Part shown: positions 1,081-33,807 of the stretch, piece after piece
How positions within the stretch are numbered: position 1 is the stretch's first letter
Layout of the letters: every line of letters begins with the position of its first letter
NCBI GenBank assembly: GCA_044225365.1
Contig: JBGAIQ010000031.1
Span: 1 to 60,254 of the forward strand
Reading direction: 5' to 3'
DNA from: Planctomycetota bacterium
GTDB taxonomy: Bacteria > Planctomycetota > B15-G4 > JADJEK01
DNA: 60,254 nt
Program-made: the position numbers and the translations under genes
The notes under the pieces: model-generated
Told to the model about the DNA's origin: nothing
The model's input: only the letters and a program-made list of their open reading frames with translations
Database searches by the model: none

Positions 1081-2337
1081 TCAGTCGTCGAAGAGATGCT
1101 CGAGGTAGGGCAGGAGCTTGTCCGCGCGCGCGTCGAGGAGCAGGAACGTTCCGTCCTGATCGAGTAGATAACAAGTGGGGAACGCTTGGATGCGGAACTG
1201 GCGCATCAAGGGCCCCTTCGTTTCGCGCTGTGCGATCTGCGGCCACTTCATGCCTTTTTCGACGATCAGCTTCTTCAGCAATTCGAGTCGAGATTCATCT
1301 CCGCTGATACCGAGGATCTCGAAACCCTTCTCGTGATAGCGAGCGTAGGCTTCGATGAGTTTCGGCAACTCCGCCACGCACGGCGCGCAGCCCACGGACC
1401 AGAAGTCGAGCAGTACGTACTTGCCGGCGTAATCGGAGAGCTTGACGGACTTGCCGTCGAGATCGGTGCCCTCGAGCGCGGGCGCCGCCTCGCCGACGGC
1501 GATGTTCGCGCGCTCGGGGACGAACTCGGTCGTAGGGATCAGATCGAGGAAGCGACCATAACGATCGATCTTGAACTCATAGGCGTGGTCGAATAGCCGC
1601 ACGGTTCCTTCGTCGACTCGAAAGCGCTCAAGCGATTGCCGATTCTCCAACTCGAAATCGCCGCTCCCATCGAGATCGAAGAAAGCGAATTGATAGGAAT
1701 CGTCGAAGATCCCGCCGTCGGCAACGATCGCGACGTTCAGTTTTCGATCGCCGATTCGAGCCGTTCCCCGACGCAGCATCTTCTCGCGTAGGAAGATCAC
1801 CTTTTCGTGCGTGGTGCCCCCTGGGATCTCGATCTCTCCGAGCGTGAATTCCATTGCGCAATCGAACGGGACCGTTTCCGCCCCGACCTTGCCCTCGAGC
1901 GATCGCGAGAACGAAGCCACGGGTTCGCCGTTCTTCGGCGCGAATACGAGGGGAGTCTCGTCGTCGAGATCGCCGTCCGCGTCGAAATCGATCCACAGCT
2001 TCGCGGGATCCTTGCCGTCGTTCAACAGTGCCCAGGGTCGCGTCGTGCCGTCGATCTGCAGATTGACGCCGAAACGCATTGCCTCCGTCGCTTCGCGCGG
2101 CGGCTTGCCGAGGACCCCGAAGCGGTCCTTGAATTCGGACTTCAATTGCGCGGCGATCTTGCGATACGTCGCTTCATTCCACATCTGGAGGATCGCGCGC
2201 GGACTCGTGGTGACCATCTCGGCGGGGCCGAACTCGACACGAACGACTCCTTGCGGCGGGCCCGAAGGATCTTCCGCGGGGGCACCTTCGGCGGCGAGCA
2301 GGAGCGGAGCGAGGAGAAATGCGAGTGGCATGGCCAT
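1081..2337 (-). CDS. Exported TlpA/ResA-family thiol-disulfide oxidoreductase with a large N-terminal domain
   Basis: Signal peptide. C-terminal AhpC/TSA-type fold with GKYVLLDFWSVGCAPC and the FPT cis-Pro loop. Confidence 0.9.
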   Translation of the reverse strand: MAMPLAFLLAPLLLAAEGAPAEDPSGPPQGVVRVEFGPAEMVTTSPRAILQMWNEATYRKIAAQLKSEFKDRFGVLGKPPREATEAMRFGVNLQIDGTTRPWALLNDGKDPAKLWIDFDADGDLDDETPLVFAPKNGEPVASFSRSLEGKVGAETVPFDCAMEFTLGEIEIPGGTTHEKVIFLREKMLRRGTARIGDRKLNVAIVADGGIFDDSYQFAFFDLDGSGDFELENRQSLERFRVDEGTVRLFDHAYEFKIDRYGRFLDLIPTTEFVPERANIAVGEAAPALEGTDLDGKSVKLSDYAGKYVLLDFWSVGCAPCVAELPKLIEAYARYHEKGFEILGISGDESRLELLKKLIVEKGMKWPQIAQRETKGPLMRQFRIQAFPTCYLLDQDGTFLLLDARADKLLPYLEHLFDD

Positions 2338-3066: not shown

Positions 3067-3309
3067 GATCGCGCTGGGCGAATAGGATCGTTCGAAGGGC
3101 GGCAGCCCGGTAAAGAAGTCGGCCCGCGCAGAGACCGAGCGAGAAGCGTCAGAGCGAGGAGGACAGCGGAGGCCTATCCATGAAAAGATATGGCGCCGAT
3201 GTCCGACGATGTCCTCGCGCTTCGCACCCGGGCGAATGCCGGCCGAGTTCTGCAGCGGGTGAACAGGGTGGGACACGCCCCGCTATGCCAAGACGAGGCG
3301 AGACCCGCT

Positions 3310-3345
3310 CCGAGATAGCCGAGTAAGCCGAGTACGCCGAGATTG
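3310..3345. repeat. 9-bp-period tandem repeat (CCGAGNNNG x4)
   Basis: ccgagatag ccgagtaag ccgagtacg ccgagattg. Confidence 0.7.
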
Positions 3346-3464
3346 CAAGGAAGCCAGGGGGGCGCCTCGAGCGCCACGGGAATGCCCTGCGATTGCCCTT
3401 CGATTGGTCTTGAGTGCGGATTCCATGCCCCGTCGTTCCGCTGGACGACTTTTGAAGAGACCCC

Positions 3465-4355
3465 ATGCGACGTGAACGGAACACCGAACGAGAAGGCCGC
3501 AAGTCGCCTTCGAAGTCGTCCCCCTCGACCCAACGAACCACACCGCGTCCGGAAGCGTCGACTGCAACCCGAATTCCTTACACGCTCGAGGAACTGGAAG
3601 GGGCGCTGCGAGATCGCCTCGCGCATCTTCGTAGCGAGCGAGAGCGTCTTGCGGCGGAGTTGCGGAACGTCGACGATGCACTGGCACGGATCGCGTCGCG
3701 CGCGGCGCAATTCCCTCGATCGCTGGCGGAAGTTCTCGAGAACTCGGTCGTGTTCGATCTGAACGAGGGAGAGATCGAGATGCCCTCGCGCAGGGCGCAT
3801 CCGCCTCTCGCTTCGTCTCGCCCAGAGACGTCCCGCATCGAGGCTCGCGAGATTCCGACGGACAGAATGATTTCTCGCAGCGAACCCGTACCGCCGAGGG
3901 CGCCGGTCGCATCCCCGGCTCCGAATCCCGTCGCGATGAGTGCGCCCGTCCGGCCGGAGAGCGTACCGCTCGTGGCCGCTCCCGCGGCGTTGCCGGCGCA
4001 ATCGCCGAGGCCCGCCGGCCCGACCGTTCCTTCCGTTTCCGCGATCCCGACGGAATCGCCCTCGCCCTTGACTGCGCCTGCTCCGCCCGCCGTACCCGTC
4101 TCACCCGTATCAAGAGAAAGGCGTGGCCCGTCCGTCGGCGCCCTCCTCCTCGAGGCCATCGCCGCGACACATCCGCAACCGCGAAACGCGAAGGACCTCG
4201 TCGACGCGATCGCGCCGCGGGCATCGACTCCGCCGACCGAGATCGCCGTGGTGCAGTCCTTGCGCGCCCTGCGTTCGAACGGCTTCCTACGAACGGACGA
4301 CGGCGAGTCCTACGGTCTCACACCCGCGGGCTGCGCTCGCGTCGGAATCGCGTAG
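3465..4355 (+). CDS. Hypothetical protein: coiled coil, Pro-rich linker, probable C-terminal winged helix
   Basis: Heptad segment LRDRLAHLRSERERLAAELRNVDDALARI. C-terminus VVQSLRALRSNGFLRTDDGESYGLTPAG resembles a wHTH wing. Start uncertain. Confidence 0.6.
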   Translation: MRRERNTEREGRKSPSKSSPSTQRTTPRPEASTATRIPYTLEELEGALRDRLAHLRSERERLAAELRNVDDALARIASRAAQFPRSLAEVLENSVVFDLNEGEIEMPSRRAHPPLASSRPETSRIEAREIPTDRMISRSEPVPPRAPVASPAPNPVAMSAPVRPESVPLVAAPAALPAQSPRPAGPTVPSVSAIPTESPSPLTAPAPPAVPVSPVSRERRGPSVGALLLEAIAATHPQPRNAKDLVDAIAPRASTPPTEIAVVQSLRALRSNGFLRTDDGESYGLTPAGCARVGIA

Positions 4356-5283: not shown

Positions 5284-5525
5284 TGCGGACTCCATGGGGC
5301 GACATGTTCGAGCGCGACGCACTCCTCGCTCCGAATCGGCCTGGAGCATAGGGCGTACCGCGAACGGAGCGCGGGACGAGATCGCTCGCTGACGATTCAC
5401 GCGTCCCGATCGATTTCGAAGGTTCGTGATTATCGAGAATCTCGCGACGACCGATGCGACATGAACGGAGCGTCGCGAACCGGCGCCGAAGTGGCCGCAG
5501 GCGCGAATCGAATTTGGAGGTAGGC

Positions 5526-7334
5526 ATGTCTTCGACACGATTCTCCCGCACCGGCCTCGGTGCGGGCTTCTTCATTCTTTGTTCCAGCGCGTTCGCGCAC
5601 CAGTTGCCGGCTCCCGGCATTGCCGGGATCGAGGTCATCGGCGAGAACATCGCGGGTGGCCCGGGCATCGTCTCCGCGATCTGGGATTTCGCGCCGAGCA
5701 CTCCGCTCGGATCCACGGTGCTGAGCGGACCGATCGATACGAGTCACAACTCCGGGCGCTGGCAGACGCCCGTCGGTCGAGGAATGGTCCCGATCTTCAG
5801 CGCGGGTCTTCCCGCTCCGATGGTTGCAGTCCCGACGACGGGGCCTGGCGGCGCGGTCAATGTCGAGTTCGTGAACTATCGGTCGGGTACGGTCCCCGCG
5901 TCCTCGATCGTGGTGGGTGTCGGCTTCGGGACGATGCCGTACGACCTGCTCGCGGCGAACGGTTTCGTCTACGCCTTCGTGCAGCCGGTCGGCGGCGGCC
6001 CCGCGATCGTGTACGAGATCACCGTACCCACGGGCGTCGCCAGCATCCCGTCGGTGACGGCCGGGTTCTTCTGCGCCTCTTTCGCGAGTCCGTACGTCTC
6101 CCGAATGCTGATCGATCCCACGACGGGCAACCTCGTCGTCGTCGAGAACGACCGGATCGAGACGTTCCCCACCGGCATCGGCGGCATCCCCGCGGTGATC
6201 AACAGCTTCGTATTCCCGACGAACGCGGGCGGCACGGCGTATCAGGCGGGTACCAACGCCGCGGCAGGATTCGTGGGCCCCGGCGGCCAGAACATGATCG
6301 TCGGCCTCCGTCAGCCGAATGGCGCGGTAGGTCACGCCTTCCTCGCGTTCTCGACCGGCGCTGGCGCCGCGGCTCCCATATTCTCCGGAGACAATCCGTT
6401 CGGGAATCGCGTTCTCGCTCCCGGGTTCCACGAGATCGCGATCTCGAACGGCTCGGCGTTTCCGGTGGCGACGTTCCTCGCCGATCAACTTCCGATCAGT
6501 ACGGGAGTCGGTGCGGTGGGTCAAGTCACGCTGAGCGGCGCGGCCTACAATGTGGTCACGACGAATTGTCCTCCACCGTACGGCGATCCGGAAGCGCGCC
6601 GCAACGCAACGGGTGATCCCGTCCTGTTCCTCTCGACTCTCGCGCCGAGCGCGAACGACGGCCTATGCGCGATCGGAACCGGCGCGGCGAACCCGCTCGG
6701 TGCTCTCGCGGTCAGCGGTGCACTGCCGGGACTCGTGGTTTCCACGCAGTGTGATCGCCCGATCAGCTTGCCGGTGGTGGGTCCGAATCACGAAGCGGTG
6801 GTCAGTGTCGGTGCGGGTGGATTCGTGGGGACGGTCGTATTCCCGATCGGTCCGGGTCCGGCGATCGGGGCTCCGACGCCATCGCCAGCCATCGGCAACG
6901 GTCCGGCAACGACCCTTCCGAACGCTCTCATCGGCGGATTGCTCGGTCCGCAGCCCGTCTTCGCGCAGGGCTTTCAGAATCTCGCCGGCGCCGGCCTCGG
7001 CCTCTCGGATCAACTCGTGCTCGGCGCGCCGCTCTCGGCCCCGCCGTCGTTCGTCTTGCTGAATCCGACGGTCGCGATGTCGCCGATCCCGGCCGGTCCG
7101 CTCGTTCTCGTGCCGCCGAATCCCGCGGCGCTCAACCCGGCGCTCGGCGCGCGCTCGACCTTCAATTTCATCAACGGCATCTCGACCGCCCCCGTCGTCG
7201 TCCATCCCCAGCACTTCTTCTTCGGGGCGATCTTTGGATTCAGCGGATTGATCGTGGAGAACCCGTTCGTTCCCTTCGGGACGCAGGCGTACTTCACGGC
7301 CAACCCGATCGTGACCGAGACCTACTCGTACTGA
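5526..7334 (+). CDS. Secreted Gly/Pro/Ala/Val-rich beta-rich protein of unknown function; lysine-free
   Basis: GGAGG RBS at 5516-5520. Signal peptide ending SSAFA. Coding-like codon usage. Confidence 0.8.
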   Translation: MSSTRFSRTGLGAGFFILCSSAFAHQLPAPGIAGIEVIGENIAGGPGIVSAIWDFAPSTPLGSTVLSGPIDTSHNSGRWQTPVGRGMVPIFSAGLPAPMVAVPTTGPGGAVNVEFVNYRSGTVPASSIVVGVGFGTMPYDLLAANGFVYAFVQPVGGGPAIVYEITVPTGVASIPSVTAGFFCASFASPYVSRMLIDPTTGNLVVVENDRIETFPTGIGGIPAVINSFVFPTNAGGTAYQAGTNAAAGFVGPGGQNMIVGLRQPNGAVGHAFLAFSTGAGAAAPIFSGDNPFGNRVLAPGFHEIAISNGSAFPVATFLADQLPISTGVGAVGQVTLSGAAYNVVTTNCPPPYGDPEARRNATGDPVLFLSTLAPSANDGLCAIGTGAANPLGALAVSGALPGLVVSTQCDRPISLPVVGPNHEAVVSVGAGGFVGTVVFPIGPGPAIGAPTPSPAIGNGPATTLPNALIGGLLGPQPVFAQGFQNLAGAGLGLSDQLVLGAPLSAPPSFVLLNPTVAMSPIPAGPLVLVPPNPAALNPALGARSTFNFINGISTAPVVVHPQHFFFGAIFGFSGLIVENPFVPFGTQAYFTANPIVTETYSY

Positions 7335-7441
7335 GTCGCTCGGCACGAACGCAAGGAAGCAGGGGGCCGGACATCGCTCGCGATGTCCGGCTTTTCTCGT
7401 GCAACGGGTCGTTACGCCGCTCGAATCCCGTCGTTTCGATC

Positions 7442-7450
7442 TGGCATAAT
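7442..7450 (+). promoter_or_regulatory. Possible extended -10 element upstream of the ECF sigma operon
   Basis: TGGCATAAT (TGn-CATAAT) in GC-rich DNA, ~60 nt before GTG 7512. Confidence 0.3.
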
Positions 7451-7511
7451 GGGTCGCTTCCTCGCACGTTCGCGGGGATTCACCCCACGATTCCCGAAAC
7501 TCCCCGCCGCT

Positions 7512-8096
7512 GTGACGACATCCACGGATACGGACTCGAAGTCCACGCGAGAGAACGACTTCACCGTCGTTCGGCTCGCAATCGATGGTTCGCGCGACGC
7601 AAGGGCGGCACTCGCGACCCGGCTGAAGGTGATCGGTCGGATCGTGACGGTTCTCAACCGGCGCCATTCCGGGCTCCTTTCAGCGCACGACCTCGAAGAT
7701 GTGATCCAGGACACCGTGGCCGCGGTGCTCTCGAAGCTGGCGACGTTTCGCGGTGAGTGCGCGCTCGAGACGTGGGTGTATTCGTTCTGCGTGAACGTCT
7801 TCCAGAACGCGCGACGAAAACACCAGCGACGCCGCCGGAAGGAGAGCTTCGACGGCGCGGAGATGGAGGACGAGACGTGGCCCGAAGATCGAACTCACGA
7901 GCGAGAAGCGATCGAGTCGTCGCTGCTCCGCGTGGGACCTCCCGCATCGGAAGTGATTCGGGAGCGAGTATTCCTCGGCTGGACGTTCGCCGAGATCGGA
8001 TCGCGCCGGAACGTCGCGGAGGCGACGATCAAGACGTGGTACTACCGCGGCATCAAGGAGCTCGGCGCCCTGCTTGCGAAGGATCAAGCGACGTGA
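7512..8096 (+). CDS. ECF-type RNA polymerase sigma factor
   Basis: Region 2 DLEDVIQDT...FRGECALETWVY and region 4 HTH WTFAEIG...EATIKTWYYRG. Start could be 7449 or 7512. Confidence 0.9.
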   Translation: MTTSTDTDSKSTRENDFTVVRLAIDGSRDARAALATRLKVIGRIVTVLNRRHSGLLSAHDLEDVIQDTVAAVLSKLATFRGECALETWVYSFCVNVFQNARRKHQRRRRKESFDGAEMEDETWPEDRTHEREAIESSLLRVGPPASEVIRERVFLGWTFAEIGSRRNVAEATIKTWYYRGIKELGALLAKDQAT

Positions 8097-8782
8097 AGGA
8101 CCCACGCGACGAATCCCAGGAGGCGCTCTTGCGCAAAGTCGCTCTCGGCGAGATTCCGGCATCCGCTCCGGAGGTCCGGGCGGCCGCGGATTCGTCGCCA
8201 GAGTTCGAGTCGGCTCTCGGGCGAATCGTTTCGACGCTCGAAGGCCTGACGGCGGCGCGATCGCATCGGGACTCGGTTCTCGAGGAATCCGCGCGTCTCG
8301 TCGGCTCGGAGTTCGATGCATCGATCGAACGGAGCGTTGCGAGTGAGTTCGAGCGTCTGGATCGGGAACGAAACGAACCGCGACCGATGAACCGGCCGTG
8401 GCGGCGCTATGCGGCCGCGGCGGCGATCCTGGTCATGGCACTCGGCGGTTGGTGGTTCTACGGTTCGCGGCGGTCGCCGGTCCTGCAATCGCCGACGTAC
8501 CTGGGCGGCGAGATCGAGTGCGTCGAACCCGTAGGAACCGTTCCCGAATTCAGGGGTTTCACGTGGCGGGGTTCCCCGCCCGCTGGCTGTTGGTACGAGG
8601 TGTCGATTCGCGATCCTTCCGGACGGGAAGTGGCGCATTCGGCGCATCTCACCGTGCCCGCGTACGAACCCACGCCCGAAGTGATCGCGAAATTGCCCTC
8701 GGAGATCGAATGGACCGTGCTCCTCAAGGATGGCGGCGGCACTCGCGGCACGGGCACGGCGCGCGCCTCGCGGTCTCACTGA
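8093..8782 (+). CDS. Putative single-pass anti-sigma factor with a small extracytoplasmic beta domain
   Basis: GTGA overlap with the sigma stop. ~100-aa helical N-terminus, TM helix YAAAAAILVMALGGWWFY, FN3/Ig-like C-terminus (FTW...WYEVSI...IEWTV). Confidence 0.75.
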   Translation: MKDPRDESQEALLRKVALGEIPASAPEVRAAADSSPEFESALGRIVSTLEGLTAARSHRDSVLEESARLVGSEFDASIERSVASEFERLDRERNEPRPMNRPWRRYAAAAAILVMALGGWWFYGSRRSPVLQSPTYLGGEIECVEPVGTVPEFRGFTWRGSPPAGCWYEVSIRDPSGREVAHSAHLTVPAYEPTPEVIAKLPSEIEWTVLLKDGGGTRGTGTARASRSH

Positions 8783-11133
8783 TTCGCACTCCCTGGTTCG
8801 TCGTCGCCTGCTCGTTCCTCGCTTCGGCGAATCTCTCCGTTCACGCCATCGCGCAGGATGCACCGGCGGCGGGGCGGACCGAGGACGATGCGGCCGAGGT
8901 GCGCGAGCTCGAGAAGGCGCGTGAAGAATTGACGAACCTCGCTGCCGCCGCCCTCGATCCTTCCAACACGCTCTGGAGTGCTTTCTCGCGCGCGTCGCAG
9001 TTGCGGGAACGCGGGCGGTTCGTCGCCGCCGAAGCGTGGCTCGCCACGGTGTCGAAGTTCGCGGCGAGAACGCCGGCCCGAGACGTGTTCGGCTTGTACG
9101 TCGCGGGCGAGCGCATGCAGATCTGCGTGCATCGCGGGGCCCTCGACCGCGCCGCGGTGTTCCTGAACGAGGTCGTCGCTCATTTCGACGCCGTCGCCAA
9201 GGACGATCCGAACCGCGATTACGCGATCTGCTCGCGGGCTCTCTACGAGGCCGATTATCGACTCGCGGTCCTCGACTTCGACGGAACGATCGAGGTCTGT
9301 GATCGAGCGGAGAGGGAACTCGCGGGGCGGCCCATTCCGCGCGAGATGACTCGGGAATTCGAGACCCGGCGATTGGCGGCGCTCTACGCACTCGGTCGGC
9401 GCGACCCGCGTTCGAATGCGAAGCGCGCGAGCGAGGCGCTGCGGGCCGGTCTGGAGACCGAAGGTCTCGCCACCGGGGTGAGGATTCGACGCGCCGTCGA
9501 ACTCGCCACGCTCGAGTTCGCGGATTCCGACCCGGTCGCGGCTCGTTCGTCGCTCGATCTCGTGAAGCCCCTCCTCGATTCGAAGGATGGGACGGCCGCG
9601 GCGGAGCTGCGCGCATGGTGGCTCGCGGTGCGGATCCGCCTCGCACGTTTCGAAGGCGATCGCCGGGAGATCGTCGCGCTGCGCGATTCGATTCGTGACG
9701 CGTTTGCGATCGCCAAGGGCGCGCGACTCGCGGCGACGGTCGACGCGTCGTCCGATCCGGCGGGATTCCTCCACTTCGCGGAGATCCAGGAGCCGCTCTT
9801 CGAGTGGCTGAGCGCGGAACTCGCGACGCGCACCGAGGAGGAGGCGTTCGAGCAGGCGCTCGCGGCGACGAGATCGGATGCGTTTTCTTCCAGTGCGGAT
9901 TCCGCATCGGATCTACCGGACTTGCGCGAGAGGGTCATCGGCGCAAACGGTGTTCTGCTCGTGTATCTGCCGTCGCCTGAAGGTACGCATCTCTTCGCGG
10001 TCGATGCGACGAGAGTCGCGCATTTCGCACTCCCGGCGGTGACCACTTTGAAGGCGTTCCGCGACGACCTCGATCCCTATCTCGACCGGCGACTGTCCGC
10101 CGAGGAGAGGTTGCGCTTCTCGCGTGCAGCAGAAGCGGCCGGCGCCATGTTCTTTCCCATGGAACTCCGGCAGTTCCTCGCGAATCGGACTTCGATCGCG
10201 ATCAGCGCGCTCGGACAACTGCACTCGGTACCGTTCGAACTCCTTCGAGTCGATGGTGTCGTTCTGGGAGCGCGTCGCGCGGTCTTTCGCGTTCCGTCGT
10301 CGTTTCGCGCGTCGCGGGATTCGCATGACGCGCAGAGCAACCCCTGCGTCATCGACTCGCAGGAGAGGATCCGACTCGTCGCGGCGACGCGACTCACGAA
10401 CTCACAACGCATGACATTCCCTGGCTTGCCCGACCTTCCGCTCGAAGCCGAGGAGATCTTGGCGATCGGATCGGCACTTCCGGATGGCGCATTCAAGGTG
10501 TTCCTCGGAGACGATGCCGATTTCGCCGCCCTTTGCACTCCCGATTCCACGCGAGTGCTCGAGATCCTGGCGCATGGCGTTTCCGACCCGTCGGGTCTCG
10601 GATCGCAAGCAATCGTCCTCGCTCCGTCGCGTTCGCCCAGCAGCGCGAGTCGGGATGGCGACGGTCTGCTCCGCTACGAAGACATCACCAGGCTCCGCGC
10701 GCCGCCGCTCGTCGTGCTCGCGTCATGCAATGCCGGGAACGGCCCGTTCCGGGCCGGCAACGAGCACATCCTCGATCTCACGGGTGCATTCCTGCAGCAC
10801 GGAGCATCCTGCGTCGTCCTCGCGACCCGCAGGATCGAGACGGCGAGCGCCGCCTCGATGCTCGCGGCGATCGACCGACGGCTCTTTCTCGGCGACGCTC
10901 CGGCGGAAGCGTTGCGAGCCGCACGCGAGGAGCTCCTGGGACGCAGCGAGTTCGTCGATCCGGTGGACCAGGGCTTCGTCGTGATCGGAGACGGGCTACG
11001 GCCGGTGTTCGCGAGACCGCCCGCGCCGTCGAACTCCCATGGAACGCGAATCGGCACGGCGATCGCGGTGATCGTCGTGGCGATGGTTGGCGTCATCGTT
11101 CGCGCGCGCCGGCGCGCGGCCTCACGGACCTGA
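8710..11133 (+). CDS. CHAT-domain (caspase-like) protease with helical TPR-like N-half, signal peptide and C-terminal TM anchor
   Basis: LHSVPFELL, catalytic His in EILAHG (10573-10575), catalytic Cys in VVLASC (10726-10728), LTGAFLQHGA, ALRAAR. C-terminal TM followed by RARRR. Start is ATG 8710 (GGAG RBS) or CTG 8779. Confidence 0.88.
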   Translation: MDRAPQGWRRHSRHGHGARLAVSLIRTPWFVVACSFLASANLSVHAIAQDAPAAGRTEDDAAEVRELEKAREELTNLAAAALDPSNTLWSAFSRASQLRERGRFVAAEAWLATVSKFAARTPARDVFGLYVAGERMQICVHRGALDRAAVFLNEVVAHFDAVAKDDPNRDYAICSRALYEADYRLAVLDFDGTIEVCDRAERELAGRPIPREMTREFETRRLAALYALGRRDPRSNAKRASEALRAGLETEGLATGVRIRRAVELATLEFADSDPVAARSSLDLVKPLLDSKDGTAAAELRAWWLAVRIRLARFEGDRREIVALRDSIRDAFAIAKGARLAATVDASSDPAGFLHFAEIQEPLFEWLSAELATRTEEEAFEQALAATRSDAFSSSADSASDLPDLRERVIGANGVLLVYLPSPEGTHLFAVDATRVAHFALPAVTTLKAFRDDLDPYLDRRLSAEERLRFSRAAEAAGAMFFPMELRQFLANRTSIAISALGQLHSVPFELLRVDGVVLGARRAVFRVPSSFRASRDSHDAQSNPCVIDSQERIRLVAATRLTNSQRMTFPGLPDLPLEAEEILAIGSALPDGAFKVFLGDDADFAALCTPDSTRVLEILAHGVSDPSGLGSQAIVLAPSRSPSSASRDGDGLLRYEDITRLRAPPLVVLASCNAGNGPFRAGNEHILDLTGAFLQHGASCVVLATRRIETASAASMLAAIDRRLFLGDAPAEALRAAREELLGRSEFVDPVDQGFVVIGDGLRPVFARPPAPSNSHGTRIGTAIAVIVVAMVGVIVRARRRAASRT

Positions 11134-12765
11134 TCCGTTGGTCGGCGGCGTGCCGCCGAATCCTCCACCCGTTCCGCCGGGATGGGGGACCGAGCCCCCC
11201 GATCCGATGGGCGTACCGCCGAGGTGGTTCACGATCCAGGAGAGATCGAGATCGATCGTTGCGACGGGCCCACTCGCCGTCACCTGTTGTCCGCTCAGCG
11301 TGACGACGCGGGTGGAGACCCAGTAGTGATTCGTGAACGTGAACGAAACCTCGGGCAGGTCGAAGGTGGCGGACAAACCGGAGGTTGGAATACCGGAGGC
11401 GATCGGGACATCCTTCACCGCGACCGAAGTCGCTTCGATCGGGGAATTCAACGGCTGCTTCCAGATTCGAATGGCGACGTGAGTCGCACCGGGGATCGTC
11501 ACGACCGGCGCGTTGAAGTCGAGCGTGACCTGAAGCTGGTTCGCCACGGTCTGTGCATTCGAGACTTGAAGGTAGGTGACCATTTGCAGTCCCGAGTCGA
11601 CGATCGGACTGAGCACCGCCGCGAGGGATGAGATCGAGTCGTCGCCGAAGACGAGGTCGGGATCGCCGTCGTGGTCCATGTCGCCCGAGACGAGCTGGCT
11701 CACTCGGTTCGCATCGGCGCCGCCCAAGCCGTCGAGCGCCGTGAGAACCATGTTCGTCGTCATGCTCGCGCCGTTGAACATGGGGCTCGCATTCGACCCC
11801 ACGCTGAGAAAGAGATCGGGAGCGATCTTCACGTTCATCGCGAGGTCCGTGATCGCGTCCTGAGTCATGTCGTTCACGGCGAGGCTCACGCCCTGGGTGT
11901 ACATCCCGAGCGGCAGCGTCGAATCGAGGCCGGTCGCTTGGGTGGTATAGATCCACTGACCCGAGCTTTGGAGCGTCGTCAGCCCGGCGAGTCGATCGCC
12001 GGTGCTCGTCGGCAGCGCTTCGAGATCGAGGTAGTCGTCGATCGGCAACCCGGTGGTCTGCGACTGGCCGGTCGGGACGAGGCGCTCGATCCGGACGCCC
12101 GAATTGTCCGAGATCGCGATTCGCTTCGTACCGCTCTTCGTCGGGTCGACCAGGGTGGCGCGGCGCGCGACGCTCGGCAGATTGAGGGTGGGACCGGCGG
12201 TGAAGGACTGACCGGATGCGAGCAGCGTGACGACGGAGAGTCCGTTACTCGCGACTCCAACGATGTCGACGTCGCCATCACCGTCGATGTCGCCGCAGAA
12301 GATCTGTTTCGCTTGCTTCCATGCCGAGGTCGATCCGGCCAGGGTGGTCGTGACGAAGCCTGTCGCGGGAGATCCTCCGCTCAACACCTGTGCAGCGCTC
12401 CATCGCCACTGAGTGAGGCCGTTCACGCCGGTGATCAGGAGCGAGTCCGGGCCGGAGCTGGCGGGGTGAAGGGTAGCGATGTCGGTCGCCGCCTGGCCCG
12501 TCGGGATCACGACGCCGTCGAACGACAGATCGTGAATGTAGTAGGCGTACCCGCCGCGGATCACCGCTGCGTCGGTCACGAAATCCCCATCGAAATCCCC
12601 GACCGCGGTGGCCGCGAACGATGCACTACTCGATGCGGGGAACGGCGCACGAGAAGCGATGACGGGAACGACGGGAAAGGACTGGGCGAAGATGCTCCCG
12701 GCACCCGCACCGAACAGCAGGACAAGTTGGACCAGTGGAACAGGAACGGTTCGAATCGTGCGCAT
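11122..12765 (-). CDS. Secreted FG-GAP/VCBS repeat protein with a Gly/Pro-rich C-terminal tail
   Basis: AGGAG RBS, signal peptide, GDFDGD, GDIDGDGDVDIV and GDMDHDGDPDLV repeats. 3' end overlaps the CHAT gene by 12 nt. Confidence 0.85.
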   Translation of the reverse strand: MRTIRTVPVPLVQLVLLFGAGAGSIFAQSFPVVPVIASRAPFPASSSASFAATAVGDFDGDFVTDAAVIRGGYAYYIHDLSFDGVVIPTGQAATDIATLHPASSGPDSLLITGVNGLTQWRWSAAQVLSGGSPATGFVTTTLAGSTSAWKQAKQIFCGDIDGDGDVDIVGVASNGLSVVTLLASGQSFTAGPTLNLPSVARRATLVDPTKSGTKRIAISDNSGVRIERLVPTGQSQTTGLPIDDYLDLEALPTSTGDRLAGLTTLQSSGQWIYTTQATGLDSTLPLGMYTQGVSLAVNDMTQDAITDLAMNVKIAPDLFLSVGSNASPMFNGASMTTNMVLTALDGLGGADANRVSQLVSGDMDHDGDPDLVFGDDSISSLAAVLSPIVDSGLQMVTYLQVSNAQTVANQLQVTLDFNAPVVTIPGATHVAIRIWKQPLNSPIEATSVAVKDVPIASGIPTSGLSATFDLPEVSFTFTNHYWVSTRVVTLSGQQVTASGPVATIDLDLSWIVNHLGGTPIGSGGSVPHPGGTGGGFGGTPPTNGSGP

Positions 12766-13136
12766 CTCGGCATCTCCTGATTTCGGTTGCTGGGTGGGGT
12801 GAGCGCACGGCCGCTTCCACTTCGGTATCGAAGGGCTCACCGGCAATCCTCACCGATCTACGCGCGCTCGATCCTATTTGCGCGCGCAACTCGTTCGTGT
12901 CACGACCCGCATGGAGATTCTCACTCCGAGGCGATCGATATCCAATGGAAACGAAATTCTTCGAAGAGGGGCGTCTGCCCAAGTCGGGGTGCCAGGACCC
13001 TATGCTGGAATCCGTCCGCACACGGAGGCGCGAGTCACGCGAATGACACGCAAATGAGAATGGAAGCGTCCGGTCCGTTCACGAGTTCAGGCGCCCGGAT
13101 CTCGATCCACGAAGTCCGGATCCTCGTCATCGTGAG

Positions 13137-14387
13137 GTGTCGCGGGTGACGGCGCGGGAGCCGACCCTCGACGACGACGGCGCTCGGACTCCGTGCGTCC
13201 CGCGCGAGTCCCTGCCGCGGCTGTTCCTTCGCTTCCTGCGCTTCGGATTCCTCGCATTCGGCGGACCCGTCGCTCAGATCGCGATGCTGCGCGAGGAACT
13301 CGTCGAACGCGAGCGCTGGGTCGCGCCGGAGCGCTTCCACCGAGCGCTCGCCGTCTACCAGGTGCTTCCCGGTCCCGAAGCGCACGAACTCTGTTGCTGG
13401 TTCGGCATGCTCTCGCGAGGGCGGATCGGCGCCCTCCTCGCAGGCCTCGGCTTCATGCTTCCCGGCTTCGTCCTCGTCTTCGCGCTCTCCATGGCGTATC
13501 GCGAGTTCGGCCTGCTGTCGCCTACCTCCGGTGCGACCGTCGCGGCGATCTTCCTCGGGATCCAACCGGCGATCGCCGCCTTGATCGGGCGCGCGGTCCA
13601 TCGCATCGGCGTGCACGTGCTCGTCTCACCGTGGCTCGTCTGCATCGCGGTCCTCGCGTTCGCGACGCCGTTCCTCGGCGCGTCGTTCTGGTGGGCCTTC
13701 GTCTTCGGCGGAGTCGCGTTTGCCCTCCGCACGAAAGGACGCACGACCGCGGCGGTCGTCGCGCTGCTCGTGCCCGTCGCATGGATCGTACTCGCCCTAC
13801 TCTCGGAGCCCGTCGCCCAGACCTCGATTCCCGTCGCGCCGTCGGTCGCCGATCCAGGTGGCGCGTCGGCGTGGACGCTGCTCGGCTCCGGCCTTCGCGC
13901 GGGGCTCCTGACTTTCGGCGGGGCGTACACCGCGATCCCGTTCCTGCGCCACGACGCCGTCGAGGTCGGAGGATGGCTCACGCGGGGTCAGTTCATCGAT
14001 GGACTCGCGCTTTCCGGGATCCTGCCTGCTCCGCTCATCATCTTCTCGACGTTCGTCGGGTATCTCGCGGGCGGAGCGGTGGGGGCGATCGCGATGACGA
14101 CGGGCGTATTCGCACCCGCCTTCCTGTTCACGATCGTCGGTCATTCCCTGTTCGAGCGACTCATCAAGAACGAAGCGGTGCATGGTTTCCTCGACGGGGT
14201 CACCGCGGCCGTGGTCGGACTCATCGCGGCGACCTTCATCGACATCGCGCGGACCTCGCTCACGAGCGGCGCCGCGGTCGTTGTCTTCGTCCTGGCCCTC
14301 GCGACGCTCCTCCTCTGGAGTTCGCGCTTCGCGGTGCTCGCGATCGTCATCGCTTCGGGAGCGATCGGTTGGGTCGTGTTCTCTTGA
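13137..14387 (+). CDS. chrA: Chromate efflux transporter (long-chain CHR family)
   Basis: Two homologous halves with FGGP/FGGA and LPGP/LPAP motifs, multiple TM helices. Confidence 0.92.
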   Translation: MSRVTAREPTLDDDGARTPCVPRESLPRLFLRFLRFGFLAFGGPVAQIAMLREELVERERWVAPERFHRALAVYQVLPGPEAHELCCWFGMLSRGRIGALLAGLGFMLPGFVLVFALSMAYREFGLLSPTSGATVAAIFLGIQPAIAALIGRAVHRIGVHVLVSPWLVCIAVLAFATPFLGASFWWAFVFGGVAFALRTKGRTTAAVVALLVPVAWIVLALLSEPVAQTSIPVAPSVADPGGASAWTLLGSGLRAGLLTFGGAYTAIPFLRHDAVEVGGWLTRGQFIDGLALSGILPAPLIIFSTFVGYLAGGAVGAIAMTTGVFAPAFLFTIVGHSLFERLIKNEAVHGFLDGVTAAVVGLIAATFIDIARTSLTSGAAVVVFVLALATLLLWSSRFAVLAIVIASGAIGWVVFS

Positions 14388-17004: not shown

Positions 17005-18996
17005 TCACAGGATGTCGAGGACTTCCCGCAGCGACGAGATCTGCGTGCGATAGTTGATTCCCACCGAGACCGCTGCGTTCCACGGCAGGTCGGTCTTCTC
17101 CGCGAGCAGGCCGAGCGCGACGCACCCGAACCCGCGAGCGATCGGCGAGCTTGCCTTGTCGTTGATGAGCGAGACGAGGGGATGGATCGAGCTCCCGTCG
17201 CCGATGAGGCCGATGGCACGTGCCAACGAGGAGATGACGGAGAGGGTCTTCGCGTTGGCGTCGAACTCGTGAACGAGGAGTTGCGTTGCACCGACATCGC
17301 CGAGGAGTCCGAGCGAAGTCGCGACCTGGAGTCGGAACTTCGGATCCGCACCGTCCTCGATGTACTTGCGGATCGTCTCCTTCGCGTCCGTTGCCTTGAG
17401 CAGGCCGAGCGCGATCGCGCAGAAGCCCTTCGTGCTCCTCTCCTTCGTCGTATCCATCACGTCGAGGATCTTGCTCTTGCTGTGCTGGCAACCGCTGATG
17501 CCGAGCGCGAGCGCATAGGCCGGGCCGAAGCTCGGATTGGTCTCCTTCTCGAACTTCTCCTCGAGAGCGATCTGGATCGCGGGGCGCTCGCGGGAGTTCT
17601 CGGGATACGCATGCGCGACGATGCCGAGTGCGAGGCCGGCCCAGGGTTCGTGAGCCTTCTGCTTCGCCTTCTCGAGCTCGCCCATCAGCGTCTTGGAGAT
17701 CCCGTTCACGATGGCGCGATCGGATTCGGTGAGCTCGTCGTTCGAGATGAGGATGCGTTCCGCGATGTCGGCGAGCGCGATGATCGCGAAGTGGCGCGCC
17801 TGGTCGTTCTGGCCGTCATGGATCTTGTCGGCGAGTCCTGCGATGACTTCGGAGTCGCGACTCTGCGCGAGCTTGCCGAGCGCGATGACGGCGGATTCCT
17901 CCACGCGATTGGTAGTCTTGCGCGACATGGCGAGCTTGAGGAGGGTGGGCACCGCTGCCTCCGCGCCGAGTCGTCCGATCGCCACGGGGATCTGACCCGC
18001 GGTGTCGGCGTCCAGTTTCTCGTCCTTCAATTCGTCGAGCAGGAAGCTGACGATGGACTCCTTCTCGTCGCGGAAGAGACCGAGGGCGACGATCGCCATC
18101 GCGCGGATCGACTTCTTCTCGGCACCGTTCTTGACGATCGCGTCCTTCAGGATCGGGATCGTGTCCGGCGAACCGATGTAGCCGAGCGCGAGTGCGGCGA
18201 ACGCGCGATGCAGGTCCTGAACGCTGCCGTTCACCTTGAGCGCCTTGCGGGCGCTCGCCGTGTCGTTGAGGATGTCGACGAGCACCGGTACGGAGTCCTG
18301 ACTTCCGAGTACGCCGAGAGCGATGATCGTCGACTGCTGCACCGAGTTGATCGGGCTGGCGAGGGCGCCTTTCAAGTCGTCGATGACGGTACCCGCAGCA
18401 TCCTTCTTGACGATGCGACCGAGCGCGAGCACCGCGGAGTCGACGATGTCCATTTCATTGGTGGAGAGCGCGCGCTTCAGTGCCGGGATCACCTGAGTAT
18501 TGACCTCGTCGGCCGAGGGGCGCGACGAATTGGATGCCGTGACCTTCAAGCCCTCGCCGCCGAGGAATCCGCTCGTTCCGGAGGCGGGCTGACCGGCTTC
18601 GGCGAGCCGTTCCCGCACGTTGACGAAGCGGTCCTTGTTGTACTCCCACCAGAACTGCCACGATTCGAAACCTTCGCCAGGCGCGTGTTTCTTGATGTTG
18701 CCACCGCCACCGGTCGATCCGCCCCGGCCGCCACCGCCGCCGGCGGGGCCACCCGGAGGCCCGCCGGGACCACCGCCCGGCGTCTGCGGACCGCCGCCCC
18801 CCGTGATCGGGCCACCGCCACCGCCGCCGGTCGTCGTCCCACCGCCGCCGCCGCCGGTCGTCGGTCCGCCCGGGTCGGGCGGGCCCTGCACGTCCCCCGG
18901 GCCGCGGTAGGTTCCGCCGTGGGCGAGTGCGTGGGGGCTGACGACGCAGATCGCTGCACTGGTGAGGAGGGAAGCAAGCACCCATTTTCGCAACAT
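17005..18996 (-). CDS. Exported HEAT-repeat protein with a Gly/Pro-rich linker
   Basis: Signal peptide then HGGTYRGPGD, poly-Gly linker, WQFWWEYNKD, and many ALG-type HEAT repeats. GGAGAG RBS. Confidence 0.9.
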   Translation of the reverse strand: MLRKWVLASLLTSAAICVVSPHALAHGGTYRGPGDVQGPPDPGGPTTGGGGGGTTTGGGGGGPITGGGGPQTPGGGPGGPPGGPAGGGGGRGGSTGGGGNIKKHAPGEGFESWQFWWEYNKDRFVNVRERLAEAGQPASGTSGFLGGEGLKVTASNSSRPSADEVNTQVIPALKRALSTNEMDIVDSAVLALGRIVKKDAAGTVIDDLKGALASPINSVQQSTIIALGVLGSQDSVPVLVDILNDTASARKALKVNGSVQDLHRAFAALALGYIGSPDTIPILKDAIVKNGAEKKSIRAMAIVALGLFRDEKESIVSFLLDELKDEKLDADTAGQIPVAIGRLGAEAAVPTLLKLAMSRKTTNRVEESAVIALGKLAQSRDSEVIAGLADKIHDGQNDQARHFAIIALADIAERILISNDELTESDRAIVNGISKTLMGELEKAKQKAHEPWAGLALGIVAHAYPENSRERPAIQIALEEKFEKETNPSFGPAYALALGISGCQHSKSKILDVMDTTKERSTKGFCAIALGLLKATDAKETIRKYIEDGADPKFRLQVATSLGLLGDVGATQLLVHEFDANAKTLSVISSLARAIGLIGDGSSIHPLVSLINDKASSPIARGFGCVALGLLAEKTDLPWNAAVSVGINYRTQISSLREVLDIL

Positions 18997-20642: not shown

Positions 20643-21908
20643 TCAATACATGCTCGTGAAGCGCCAGAGCATTCCGTCGAGCTCGGGGTCGCACGGGGAG
20701 CCGTCGCCCGCACCGAGATTCTTGAGCGCCGCGGCGATGCACTCGCGCACGTGATCGTTCGTCTCCCGGTCGAGCATCCCCTTCAGCTTCGCTTCCAGCG
20801 CGCGCTCGCGCGTCGTTCCGACCACCCAGACCGCGACCCCGCGGACGCTCGCGCTCGAGTCGGTGAGTCGAGTCTCGAGGATCTTCTTCGTCTCGGCGTC
20901 CGGCTTCAAGGAACGCAGGGCGCGCAGGCCCCCCGCAGCGATTCCCTGGTCCTTGTCCAGGCTCGCCTTCTTCACGAACGCCTGGACCTCTGCGCTCTTC
21001 GGATCGCACTCGGCGAGAGCGCGCGGTATGTCGCACGCGACCATCGTGACGAGTTTCTTCTTCGTCAGTTTGAGGAGCGCTGGCGTGGCGGCCGGTAGTC
21101 CGATGCGACCGAGTCCGAGTACAGCGCCGTGCAGCACCGTGGTGTTCGAGTCCGAGAGACGGGCGACGATCGGCGCGAGCGCGTCGTAGTTCCCCTTGCT
21201 CGCCAGTGCGTCGATCGCATCGCAACGCGTGTCATCCATCACCCTGGGATCGAGCAACGCGATGAGGGCGTCGCGCGCGCGGACGTCATCGAGCTGACCG
21301 AGTTCCGCGATGGCGGGTTTGCGCCGCTCGGCGTTGTGGTCCTTCGCCGCCGCGATGAGTTCGGCGATGTGCTCAGCGGTCGGAGCGCCGCCGCGAATCG
21401 AGTCACCGGCCGATTCCTGCGCGGCATCCGCCTTCACGTCGGCGCCCGTTCGCATGGCGTTGTGCGCCATCGTCATCATCTTCAGCAGCGTCGCCTTGTC
21501 GACCTCGTAGGCTCGTCGAACGAGCACCTTCTTGTCCGGGGTCGCGAGCACGTGTTGGGGCGCGATCACCTCTTCCTTGCCGATGAATGCCGCGCGCGCT
21601 TTCTTCTCGACCGTGCGATGGTCGTCGCAGGTGATCGTTCCGAAACGCGAACAGGGATCGGAGGAACCGGCGGGGGAGTGGGCGAAGGTGCTGGCCACGA
21701 GGCAGACGAAGTCCGCGCTGCGTTTCACGAACTCCGGGTCCTTGTAGATCTTGACGAGCGAGTCGTTCGCACTCTCTCCGTCCATGTTGAAACACACGAG
21801 GACCGGCACGTTCCGTTCCTTCGCTTTGGCGAAGGCGGCGTCGAAGTCCTTTTCCCAGACAACTCCATTGCCGAGCAAAGCAGCGGCGACGATCCATGCC
21901 CCGATCAT
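20643..21908 (-). CDS. Exported thioredoxin-like (no CxxC) plus HEAT-repeat protein
   Basis: Signal peptide, WEKDFDAAFAKAKERNVPVLVCF thioredoxin_7-like start, C-terminal HEAT repeats. Confidence 0.82.
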   Translation of the reverse strand: MIGAWIVAAALLGNGVVWEKDFDAAFAKAKERNVPVLVCFNMDGESANDSLVKIYKDPEFVKRSADFVCLVASTFAHSPAGSSDPCSRFGTITCDDHRTVEKKARAAFIGKEEVIAPQHVLATPDKKVLVRRAYEVDKATLLKMMTMAHNAMRTGADVKADAAQESAGDSIRGGAPTAEHIAELIAAAKDHNAERRKPAIAELGQLDDVRARDALIALLDPRVMDDTRCDAIDALASKGNYDALAPIVARLSDSNTTVLHGAVLGLGRIGLPAATPALLKLTKKKLVTMVACDIPRALAECDPKSAEVQAFVKKASLDKDQGIAAGGLRALRSLKPDAETKKILETRLTDSSASVRGVAVWVVGTTRERALEAKLKGMLDRETNDHVRECIAAALKNLGAGDGSPCDPELDGMLWRFTSMY

Positions 21909-22193
21909 GACCCTCTCTCCTTCCACCCAGAACCGATTTCGCCCATTCCTTTGGCCGTTGGTTTGGCCATTCGGCGGGCCGCAGCGCGCCCAGACGCGTG
22001 TTGCGGCGTTTCGGTCGCGTGGTACGGAGCGCGGAGCGCTTCTCTTCGAGGCAATTCCTCCGAAACTCACGTGCGACCCACGATCACGAGGAACGTCACG
22101 GGAGCGACGTTTCTTGTAACAAGGACGAAGTTCCCGTTCGGGAGGCGGGAAGGGACTACGAATGGCGGGCGATGGACGCTCGCGAGGTCCCCG

Positions 22194-24734: not shown

Positions 24735-24927
24735 GAGTGAGCATTCCTGCACGGGAGGAAGGGGCCAACGGTCAGGAAGCAAGCGTTGCGCCGCGAACTC
24801 GTTCGCGCCCGCCCGGCCGCGGATTCCGACGGTTCGTTCACATTTCGTTGGCCCCGCAGCGCGGTTCGTTTCGCACATCGGGAGGTCGCGCATGGCTGCG
24901 ATCCACCCGGATCGCGAGGAGACTTCG

Positions 24928-25677
24928 ATGGACCACGGCTTCGATGACCCTTCGACCAAGCAACCTCTTGGTCACCACCGTTCGATCGGAAGGCGCCCCG
25001 TCCTCGTGGCGGCGGCGGCGGCGATACTCGGGCCGGCCGGGGGTGCGTTCGCTCGACCGCATGCGAGGAACGAGGACGGTCCGGACTCCGCGATCGATCT
25101 CGAGGCATTCGTCGCGGGCGCTCGGCCGCTCGCGACGCAGTGGATCGGCGACACCAGTCGGATAGGACAGGATCGCTATCTGCACGCGATCGCATCCTGG
25201 GCCGTGCGACTTCGCGACGTGCCGATTCCAGCGATGAGGGAGACGACGAAGGATTCGGCGGGAAAGACCTTCATCGGGGCGAACGAGGCCGATGCACCGT
25301 TCACGATCCTGCATTGGAAGATGGAACCGAATTCGCAGATCGCTCCGCATCCCCACCTCTACGGAAACGTGGTGACTCTGTGTCTCGAAGGAGAGGTGCG
25401 CATCGAGAACTACGAGATCGTGGGCGATCGTGATTTCGACCGGAAGGACGCGTTTCCCGTCCGGCGCGTGCTGGATCAAGTCCTGCTCGCCGGCGACGTG
25501 AACCTGGTCTCGCTGGAGCATGCGTACATCCACGGATTCCGAACGGGTGCGACCGGCGCCCGCGGGCTCGACATCACGACGCGCATCCGGGAGAAGCGTC
25601 CGACACCGACCCTTTTGGTCGGTGCGCCGCAAGGAGATCCTGCCGATCGGCGATTCCTTGGCCGCTGGCAGTCGTAG
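24928..25677 (+). CDS. Tat-exported cupin, thiol dioxygenase (PCO/ADO)-like
   Basis: GAGGAG RBS, GRRPVLVAAAAAILG...AFA Tat-like signal, HPH...H metal triad, LDI motif. Confidence 0.7.
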   Translation: MDHGFDDPSTKQPLGHHRSIGRRPVLVAAAAAILGPAGGAFARPHARNEDGPDSAIDLEAFVAGARPLATQWIGDTSRIGQDRYLHAIASWAVRLRDVPIPAMRETTKDSAGKTFIGANEADAPFTILHWKMEPNSQIAPHPHLYGNVVTLCLEGEVRIENYEIVGDRDFDRKDAFPVRRVLDQVLLAGDVNLVSLEHAYIHGFRTGATGARGLDITTRIREKRPTPTLLVGAPQGDPADRRFLGRWQS

Positions 25678-32862: not shown

Positions 32863-33807
32863 CTACTTGACGGCCTTCTGCGGCGACGCCGCGCGCAACG
32901 ACTCGACGAGCCGCGCGCGCGCGGCATCGTCGAATCCCACTTGCGAGAGCATCGCGCTGAATGCATCGATCTCTTCGCTCGAGCCCGGATAACCGAGATT
33001 CCCCTTCGGCAGGTCGCTCGTGACGAGAGCCTTGCCTTCCGCGTCGAGGAACACGAACCAGGGGATGCCGTCGTTCTTTGCGCCGCGGTAGCGCGTCATG
33101 ACGGCGTCGCCGTGCGTCATCCGTTCGATGTCGATCTTGACTTCGATCGCCCGCGATTCGAAGTCTTTCGCGACGGCTTCCGTGGCGAGCCATCCGTCGA
33201 GCTTGCGGCACCAGCCGCACCATGGCGCTCCGAAATGGGCGAAGACGACTCTCTTCTCGGCCTTCGCCTTGGCGATCGCCGTGGCCAGCACGGTTTCCGC
33301 ATCGAGGGGCGGCGCCTTGTGCTCCTTCAAGAATGCGACGACCTTGGCGGGATCATGATGGTCGCCGACCTCGAGCGGTCCGGTTGCTTGCTGATGGATC
33401 GGCTTGCCGTCGGAATCGAGGACCGTGAGGTAGGGGATTCCGGCGTTCTCGAAGGAGGCGCCGAGCTTCGCCGCGAGCGCCATGTTGGTGTCGGTCGCCT
33501 TCATGTGGCCGACGTCGACGAGCACGACCTCGTACTCGTAAAGAAACTCCTTCTGGATGTCGGGGTCCTTTGCGCAGAGGTCATGGAGCTTGTGGCACCA
33601 GCCGCACCAATTCGCTCCCCATTGCACGAGGACTCGCTTGTTGTCCTTCTTCGCCCGAGCGACCGCGTCTGCGATCTGCTGAGAGGCATTCGCGCTCTCG
33701 TCGTAGATGTTCGTCGAGCGTTGTTTCGCCGTGGGTTCGTCGGCGTGCGATCGCATCGCGATGGGAACGAGGAGGATCGCTGCGAGGGCGAAAGGGTGGA
33801 AGCGCAT
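32863..33807 (-). CDS. Exported tandem two-domain thioredoxin protein
   Basis: Signal peptide, two WCGWC motifs, two GIP cis-Pro loops. Confidence 0.9.
   Translation of the reverse strand: MRFHPFALAAILLVPIAMRSHADEPTAKQRSTNIYDESANASQQIADAVARAKKDNKRVLVQWGANWCGWCHKLHDLCAKDPDIQKEFLYEYEVVLVDVGHMKATDTNMALAAKLGASFENAGIPYLTVLDSDGKPIHQQATGPLEVGDHHDPAKVVAFLKEHKAPPLDAETVLATAIAKAKAEKRVVFAHFGAPWCGWCRKLDGWLATEAVAKDFESRAIEVKIDIERMTHGDAVMTRYRGAKNDGIPWFVFLDAEGKALVTSDLPKGNLGYPGSSEEIDAFSAMLSQVGFDDAARARLVESLRAASPQKAVK

Follow-up and report, generated by a model that had tools for sequence, protein, structure and literature searches.

An ECF sigma factor, a putative single-pass anti-sigma factor, a predicted exported TPR-CHAT protease and an FG-GAP protein encoded together at a planctomycete locus

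Results

Gene content of the locus

We analyzed a stretch of 60,254 nucleotides from a Planctomycetota bacterium (assembly GCA_044225365.1, contig JBGAIQ010000031.1, positions 1 to 60,254), called the window here. It has a G+C content of about 65% and 416 open reading frames (ORFs) over its whole length. The plus strand from 7512 to 11133 encodes a sigma factor of the extracytoplasmic function (ECF) type, a 229-residue protein with a single transmembrane (TM) segment and an 807-residue protein with a tetratricopeptide repeat (TPR) half and a CHAT domain. A fourth gene, which encodes an FG-GAP protein, converges on the CHAT gene. The middle protein is a putative anti-sigma factor, and the CHAT protein is a predicted cysteine protease that may act on it. 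The features are listed in Table 1.

Table 1. Features of the sigma/anti-sigma/CHAT/FG-GAP locus in window coordinates.
Feature	Position	Strand	Basis
Candidate ECF-type promoter AAACT-N15-GACA	7497..7520	+	Motif match
ECF sigma factor	7512..8096	+	194 aa from GTG 7512; Pfam, TIGR02937, tblastn
Putative single-pass anti-sigma	8093..8782	+	229 aa; locus-family HMM
Anti-sigma TM helix, residues 103-125	8399..8467	+	Model, charge bias
Juxtamembrane linker, residues 126-141, candidate cleavage region	8468..8515	+	Model, conservation, predicted interface
Ig/FN3-like beta-sandwich outer domain, residues 142-227	8516..8773	+	Model, Foldseek
TPR-CHAT cysteine protease (predicted), extracytoplasmic, membrane-tethered	8710..11133	+	Pfam CHAT, model, fold matches
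Signal peptide region, residues 1-48 (...SVHAIA/QD)	8710..8853	+	Hydrophobic segment 20-48
TPR-like helical repeat half, residues 58-410	8881..9939	+	Model helices, profile
CHAT caspase-fold domain, residues 414-760	9949..10989	+	Pfam, model
His622 (LEILAHG)	10573-10575	+	Dyad residue
Cys673 (VVLASC)	10726-10728	+	Dyad residue
C-terminal TM anchor, residues 779-806, with Arg-rich tail RARRRAASRT	11044..11130	+	Model, hydropathy
Secreted FG-GAP beta-propeller protein	11122..12765	-	Pfam FG-GAP_3, locus HMM

The original prediction had described three overlapping genes, and the reading frames agree with it. The TGA stop of the sigma gene (8094-8096) shares bases with the GTG at 8093 that starts the middle gene; the result is GTGA at 8093-8096. 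The sigma ORF itself runs from 7383 to 8096 and offers three candidate starts, ATG 7383, ATG 7449 and GTG 7512. The middle gene stops at TGA 8780-8782. TTG 8129, which follows a perfect AGGAGG at a distance of 5 nt, could also be its start, but GTG 8093 was favored, as N-terminal homology and the 4-nt overlap conserved among the loci both point to it. The reading frame of CHAT opens at 8398. Its ATG at 8710, with GGAG 5 nt upstream, is the only in-frame start that retains the signal peptide, so the CHAT gene begins within the end of the middle gene and the two overlap by 73 nt.

The sigma protein matched Pfam Sigma70_r2 (7.5e-8) and Sigma70_r4_2 (6.6e-6), with no match for region 3, and scored 63.4 bits against TIGR02937 sigma70-ECF (cut-off 42.9). 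Judged by these families it is an ECF (group 4) sigma-70 factor. Two planctomycete ECF subfamily models stayed below their cut-offs (TIGR02984, plancto1, 30.4 against 183.75; TIGR02989, 35.5 against 124.55). Pfam CHAT (PF12770) matched the third protein with 1.2e-29 and 104.2 bits (cut-off 24). Thus the family assignments made for the sigma and CHAT proteins in the original prediction all lie above the model cut-offs.

Conservation of the triad

Further loci were collected through the CHAT protein alone. The query was aligned with ten relatives that share PAEALRAAR, genome stretches were matched, and the matches were confirmed by tblastn. At least 599 stretches matched the pattern; the 14 loci confirmed by tblastn among the matches listed are a sample. 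Thirteen came from metagenome-assembled genomes (MAGs) of Planctomycetota and one from a Solirubrobacterales MAG. Before counting, we set aside L011, in which the contig stops within the CHAT gene so that its 5' part and all upstream sequence are missing, and L014, where the match covers 82 residues and the context is unrelated. L005 (5' end of the sigma gene missing) and L006 (3' end of the CHAT gene missing) were counted despite their gaps.

The order sigma, one-TM protein, CHAT was present in 12/12 complete Planctomycetota loci listed. The sigmas of all 12 matched Sigma70_r2 and Sigma70_r4_2 and were 30-44% identical to the window sigma by tblastn. The middle proteins were 212-240 residues long, with one TM segment at about residues 85-130. 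The sigma and middle genes overlapped by 4 nt in 11 loci and by 8 nt in L003, and in most loci the CHAT start lay inside the end of the middle gene. The window relatives in these 12 loci were 27-35% identical, and all were from Planctomycetota. Judged from this shared order, the triad, whose conservation the original prediction had left to be checked, is more than a chance arrangement. The pairwise identities of sigma and CHAT were correlated (Spearman 0.69), which is weak evidence because the relatives share history. L002 and L003 are two separate modules in one MAG, so more than one copy per genome is possible.

A conserved fourth gene

Near the CHAT stop, 11/11 listed loci with downstream sequence (L001-L005, L007-L010, L012 and L013) carry a convergent ORF of 560-753 residues, at a spacing that ranged from a 4-nt overlap to a 105-nt gap. 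Ten of the 11 proteins matched FG-GAP_3 or FG-GAP with E ≤1e-3. In the window, the corresponding gene overlaps the CHAT gene by 12 nt. Its longest ORF extends to 12846, and the likely start is ATG 12765, which is preceded by AGGAG; the protein has a signal peptide and matched FG-GAP_3 with 1.6e-8. When a hidden Markov model (HMM) of the 11 convergent proteins was compared with it, the match was 153 bits in one domain, end to end. The other FG-GAP protein of the window gave repeat-level pieces only, the best at 36.5 bits. No other flanking gene was conserved in the 12 listed loci, whose flanks varied. The pairwise identities of the FG-GAP proteins, compared with those of the other three proteins, gave Spearman values of -0.19 to -0.28; these are uninformative because identity is about 20% and the starts are approximate.

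On the strength of this conserved position, the FG-GAP gene is a fourth member of the module, overlooked in the original prediction. The earlier description of the system as self-contained was therefore too narrow.

The TPR-CHAT protein

The CHAT protein was modeled from an alignment of 86 sequences, with a predicted local distance difference test (pLDDT) of 88.0 and a predicted template modeling score (pTM) of 0.87. Its N-terminus is of low confidence in the model and contains the hydrophobic signal segment. Read by eye, each of the 13 CHAT copies starts with an Arg-rich N-region, followed by a hydrophobic stretch with an A-x-A/Q-type end. Two other readings of this region were rejected, also by eye: a lipobox at VVAC in the window signal peptide, as the Cys is absent from the 12 homologues, and a Tat signal, as the twin-arginine motif is not consistent. 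At the other end, hydropathy places the C-terminal TM segment at 777-803, and the terminal helix of the model spans 779-806. The signal peptide, the C-terminal TM helix and the positive tail together predict that the CHAT domain lies outside the membrane, on the side proposed in the original prediction. The TPR-like half, the intact His/Cys dyad and the Arg tail were likewise found as described there. About 18 residues separate the end of the CHAT domain from the protein's own membrane anchor.

A single-sequence word-index search with the CHAT protein gave one distant match among 8000 candidates. Exhaustive HMMER gave 4446 representatives with E ≤1e-3, of which 698 reached 1e-10 and 23 reached 1e-30; many are full length and 25-34% identical. 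We aligned the query with 144 of the 150 best relatives, excluding six short fragments. His622 and Cys673 are invariant in these 145 aligned sequences, an invariance that places CHAT catalysis under selection.

As a fold, the CHAT model is closest to DdvA of Myxococcus xanthus, which Foldseek placed first (8rot_A, 5.9e-13; 8rw5, 1.3e-12, TMq 0.52), followed by Csx29 (8eey_B, 1.8e-11) and separase, with 45 matches at E ≤0.001. DdvA is a single-pass anti-sigma factor with a periplasmic part of 900 residues that is a TPR-CHAT region (PMC11506125). At the level of sequence, no link to DdvA, Csx29 or separase was found: the CHAT-family profile matched only TPR proteins in the PDB (E down to 4.8e-10), and the CHAT domain alone matched 0 chains at E up to 10. 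No fused anti-sigma-CHAT protein was present among the 150 best relatives, where the HMM of the middle protein gave nothing at E <0.1. The motif HxxxCxxC was found within the first 90 residues in 0 of 151 CHAT sequences.

The middle protein

An AlphaFold2 model of the middle protein was built on the alignment of 13 family members, with a mean pLDDT of 85.6. It has helices at 4-17, 26-34 and 36-94, then the TM helix and the beta sandwich, so the helical N-domain, one TM segment and small outer beta domain of the original prediction all reappear. Residues 126-137 are disordered (pLDDT <50). By hydropathy, a 17-residue window with a threshold of 1.6 gave a TM segment at 106-123, and a 19-residue window at 1.5 gave none. 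The N-terminus is predicted to be inside because five K/R residues precede the TM segment and two follow it; this bias was seen in 12/13 family members, with equal numbers in L002. When the outer domain was compared by Foldseek, the best match was CopC (5icu, 1.1e-4), followed by FN3-type domains, with three matches at E ≤0.001. The linker holds one conserved motif, PTYLGGE (residues 134-140), in which conservation of the L and G columns reaches 70% or more in the family alignment.

An HMM of the 12 locus homologues, with the window copy excluded, matched the middle protein with 119 bits and E 6e-36 when it was run against the window ORFs; the next of the 416 scored 7.3 bits. A single-sequence word-index search found only the protein itself among 1575 candidates. 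The family profile found six proteins, the window's own included, two of which are annotated as "hypothetical protein" from Planctomycetes. When this profile was compared with the PDB, the best match was 3hug_B (E 0.0032), which we take to be the SigL-RslA complex and whose chain is named in the match only as a membrane protein, aligned at the CPxC region; RsiW (5wuq_C) followed with E 1.1. In the ESM Atlas, 17 of 30 matches lay in a zf-HC2-carrying set (48% of the members of the cluster shown), and the top score was 0.95. CxxC is kept in 7/13 family members and HxxxCxxC in 2/13.

Predicted contact between the CHAT and middle proteins

The complex of CHAT residues 49-776 with anti-sigma residues 124-229 was predicted from alignments of 86 and 13 rows, respectively. 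The score was 0.71, the median of three runs (0.80, 0.00 and 0.71), and the best of three controls scored 0.01. A mark of 0.71 was reached by 58/80 solved complexes and 2/110 mismatched pairs, a scale that is only rough here because our own alignments were used. The runs agreed in at least 69% of contacts, with a partner pLDDT of at least 71. On the CHAT protein, the predicted interface includes residues 620-625 and 671-674, which flank His622 and Cys673. On the anti-sigma it includes 134-140, which is PTYLGGE, together with Ig-like domain strands. The prediction, a statement of model confidence and no measurement, speaks for binding between the CHAT protein and the outer part of the anti-sigma, the pairing that the original prediction had suggested for modeling.

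PTYLGGE lies 9-15 residues past the anti-sigma TM helix. With about 18 residues between the CHAT domain and its own anchor, the geometry would suit a cut in the linker.

Candidate promoter and upstream region

The motif AAACT-N15-GACA has a single match in the window, where 0.12 would be expected; at least one match occurred in 11/100 shuffles. The same motif lies upstream of the sigma gene in L001 (3698-3721) and L004 (3195-3218), and upstream of the FG-GAP gene in L004 (9151-9174, minus strand) and L012 (9032-9055, minus strand). A relaxed form was found in 5/12 sigma upstream regions of the listed loci, against a background of 0.068 per kb. The motif is kept as a promoter candidate because it lies inside the open frame at the proposed start, in the window (GTG 7512) and in L006. 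Upstream of the window FG-GAP gene there is a near-match; judged by eye, its spacing is wrong, and it was left out of the count. Scans of 7200-13200 for sigma-70 promoters and terminators gave nothing exceeding chance.

L001 (about 3800-3860) and L004 (about 3300-3360) share a conserved block that lies upstream of where sigma is presumed to start. Most of the differences within it are synonymous when read in one frame (...CESRCTRLAPV.ARQFF...), which suggests that in these two loci the sigma has an N-terminal extension or that a small ORF lies upstream.

Other genes in the window

Just upstream of the sigma gene, 5454-7334 (plus strand) encodes a 626-residue protein whose N-terminus is signal-like. 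Neither Pfam nor NCBIfam nor PADLOC assigns it to a family, and the 12 listed loci contain no counterpart. At 6-16 kb downstream, 17005-18996, 20643-22070, 22194-24959 and 25708-27207 (all minus strand) encode two HEAT-repeat proteins, a large 12-repeat FG-GAP protein and a Ser/Thr kinase. These are typical planctomycete-style signaling and surface genes, unlinked to the module elsewhere. Thiol-redox genes are dispersed at 1081-2337 (minus), 32863-33990 (minus), 55297-55767 (minus) and 55769-56434 (plus); their products are an AhpC/TSA-thioredoxin fusion, a thioredoxin-like DsbH-type protein, BrxC and a disulfide isomerase.

Discussion

The most likely reading of this locus is a split, in-trans form of the mechanism proposed for DdvA. 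The DdvA authors set out the general scheme of regulated intramembrane proteolysis (RIP), in which a site-1 cut of the anti-sigma is followed by a site-2 cut. For DdvA they propose that a signal makes the chains of a dimer cut the linker in trans, after which RseP acts (PMC11506125). For the window we propose, as quite possible though short of probable, that the four genes form an envelope-signaling module whose CHAT protein cuts its own anti-sigma in trans as the site-1 protease. We are more doubtful about a caspase-fold, exported, often membrane-tethered in-trans site-1 protease in Planctomycetota with the FG-GAP protein as its extracellular sensing partner.

Computation gave the gene families, the protein topology, the module's conservation, the likeness in fold to DdvA and the predicted interface. 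From these we infer the following course of events. In the resting state, the anti-sigma would keep the sigma factor at the membrane, a pairing for which the neighboring position of the two genes and their 4-nt overlap speak. The CHAT protein would dock on the Ig-like domain, with PTYLGGE near the His-Cys dyad. A signal, sensed perhaps via the TPR half or the FG-GAP protein, would then activate the protease, which would cut the linker in trans. Removal of the remaining stub would fall to a site-2 protease of the RseP type and to cytoplasmic proteases. The freed sigma would transcribe its regulon, probably its own operon and perhaps the FG-GAP gene. Purely as conjecture, the activating event might be ligand binding at the TPR region, as the original prediction had it, and cleavage might depend on the Cys.

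Several results weigh against this interpretation. No Pfam family, zf-HC2 included, gave a meaningful match in any of the 13 middle proteins, and NF052375 "anti-sigma factor" scored 20.7 bits (E 3.3e-4) against a cut-off of 100. The window protein has SPEF in place of the Cys pair and lacks the H-x3-C-x2-C zinc motif (zinc-associated anti-sigma, ZAS), so that it would be a zinc-free anti-sigma. The assignment of the middle protein as an anti-sigma with a class-I-like helical domain is based on weak scores and is putative. No promoter motif is common to all loci; pairs of k-mers were shared by at most three to five upstream regions. The CHAT membrane anchor is present in 4/11 listed-locus CHAT genes with an intact 3' end. 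A hydrophobic C-terminal stretch with at least two K/R residues was found in 101 of the best 150 relatives (of 4446), and by eye nearly all of the other 49 end right past the last CHAT motif, so the anchor is common, not obligatory. One of the three complex runs scored 0.00, and the predicted interface is a list of residues for each partner rather than a set of residue-to-residue pairs. Finally, the site-1 role of CHAT is unproven even in DdvA, the one relative that has been studied, because its dyad mutants were without phenotype and autoproteolysis was not seen (PMC11506125).

The DdvA results also bear on a different role for the CHAT protein, which we place on the unlikely side. It might act as a co-sensor or shield on the Ig-like domain that protects the anti-sigma against RseP or other proteases, and its protease might target the FG-GAP protein or a foreign protein. 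Release of the shield would then start the cascade, as with RseB for RseA or the bulky TPR-CHAT part of DdvA against RseP. RseP removed truncated DdvA, so that loss of TPR-CHAT turns the stub into an RseP substrate, and the silent dyad mutants fit the same picture (PMC11506125). The predicted interface involves the Ig-like domain, and the conserved FG-GAP neighbor could be the real substrate. However, a pure shield needs neither an invariant dyad nor an interface that includes the dyad neighborhoods and the linker motif, and both were found.

Co-transcription with an autoregulated sigma is typical for regulon members, and the Casas-Pastor classification paper warns that context alone cannot separate regulators from targets. 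The CHAT and FG-GAP proteins might thus be outputs of the sigma factor, with an anti-sigma that senses through its own Ig-like domain and is cut by general envelope proteases. That the AAACT-N15-GACA motif precedes the FG-GAP gene in L004 and L012 would agree with this. We consider it improbable, since translational coupling is strict in 12/12 listed loci and the predicted interface is specific (0.71 against 0.01). The correlation of sigma and CHAT identities (Spearman 0.69) points the same way, with little weight given the shared history. That the module switches antiviral defense genes, a reading prompted by the fold likeness to DdvA and by the control of a cyclic oligonucleotide-based antiphage signaling system (CBASS)-CRISPR island by DdvA/DdvS (PMC11506125), is very improbable, because PADLOC was blank for the triad, gave only two weak repeat-level matches to HEAT proteins among the 15 proteins scanned around it, and the varied flanks of the 12 listed loci held no cas or CBASS gene among those scanned.

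The in-trans cut by the CHAT protein thus stays our preferred reading. As a whole, the interpretation given in the original prediction held for the families, the conservation, the predicted outside position of CHAT and the predicted contact, whereas its choice of precedent, discussed below, and its self-contained system did not. Should the wider reading, with the FG-GAP protein as sensing partner, be true, it would amount to the first example of caspase-type regulated proteolysis acting on an ECF anti-sigma across a membrane, and to a natural two-piece form of a mechanism so far only proposed for DdvA. In DdvA, protease and substrate are one chain. Here they are two proteins; a docking surface is predicted between them and the linker carries a short conserved motif, which makes it possible to ask by simple co-expression whether a periplasmic CHAT domain makes the site-1 cut of an anti-sigma. 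The work also defines a putative anti-sigma family without a Pfam model, whose two named database entries read "hypothetical protein", and extends the module by a conserved FG-GAP partner. It would give a first mechanistic handle on ECF signaling in Planctomycetota.

Comparison with known systems

No published description of a CHAT/ECF/anti-sigma module was found in the literature searched. The original prediction took Craspase, the type III-E CRISPR protease, as the characterized link from CHAT to sigma. Like the window system, Craspase combines a TPR-CHAT protein (Csx29) with a target (Csx30) that is tied to an ECF-like sigma, CASP-sigma. Unlike it, Craspase acts in the cytoplasm without any membrane step and is switched on by RNA-guided Cas7-11, whereas the window protease is predicted to be exported. 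The window ORFs and neighbors that were scanned included no cas gene.

With RIP of the RseA type, in which DegS is followed by RseP, the module would share a single-pass anti-sigma, a periplasmic site-1 cut and a subsequent site-2 cut. The known site-1 enzymes for anti-sigmas are serine proteases or metalloproteases encoded elsewhere. In contrast, the candidate enzyme here is a cysteine protease of the caspase fold, and translational coupling links it to its presumed substrate.

CHAT proteins also occur in the conserved neighborhood of ECF54, where proteolytic control has been proposed (PMC8999054). ECF54 is described as actinobacterial and as lacking an anti-sigma, whereas the window has a putative one.

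The closer published precedent is DdvA/DdvS, the top fold match (PMC11506125). Both systems have an ECF sigma, a single-pass anti-sigma, putative in the window, and a periplasmic TPR-CHAT region with a His-Cys dyad. In DdvA a flexible juxtamembrane linker faces the active site, and a counterpart of this arrangement is predicted here. DdvA carries anti-sigma and TPR-CHAT on one polypeptide, whereas the window system uses two genes, in 13/13 copies. In addition, the window anti-sigma has its own Ig-like outer domain, the window CHAT protein has its own signal peptide and C-terminal anchor, the module includes a conserved FG-GAP gene, PADLOC found no defense island near the triad, and the phylum is Planctomycetota. 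The window system is a split, unannotated variant of the DdvA type, in a phylum that is new for this type.

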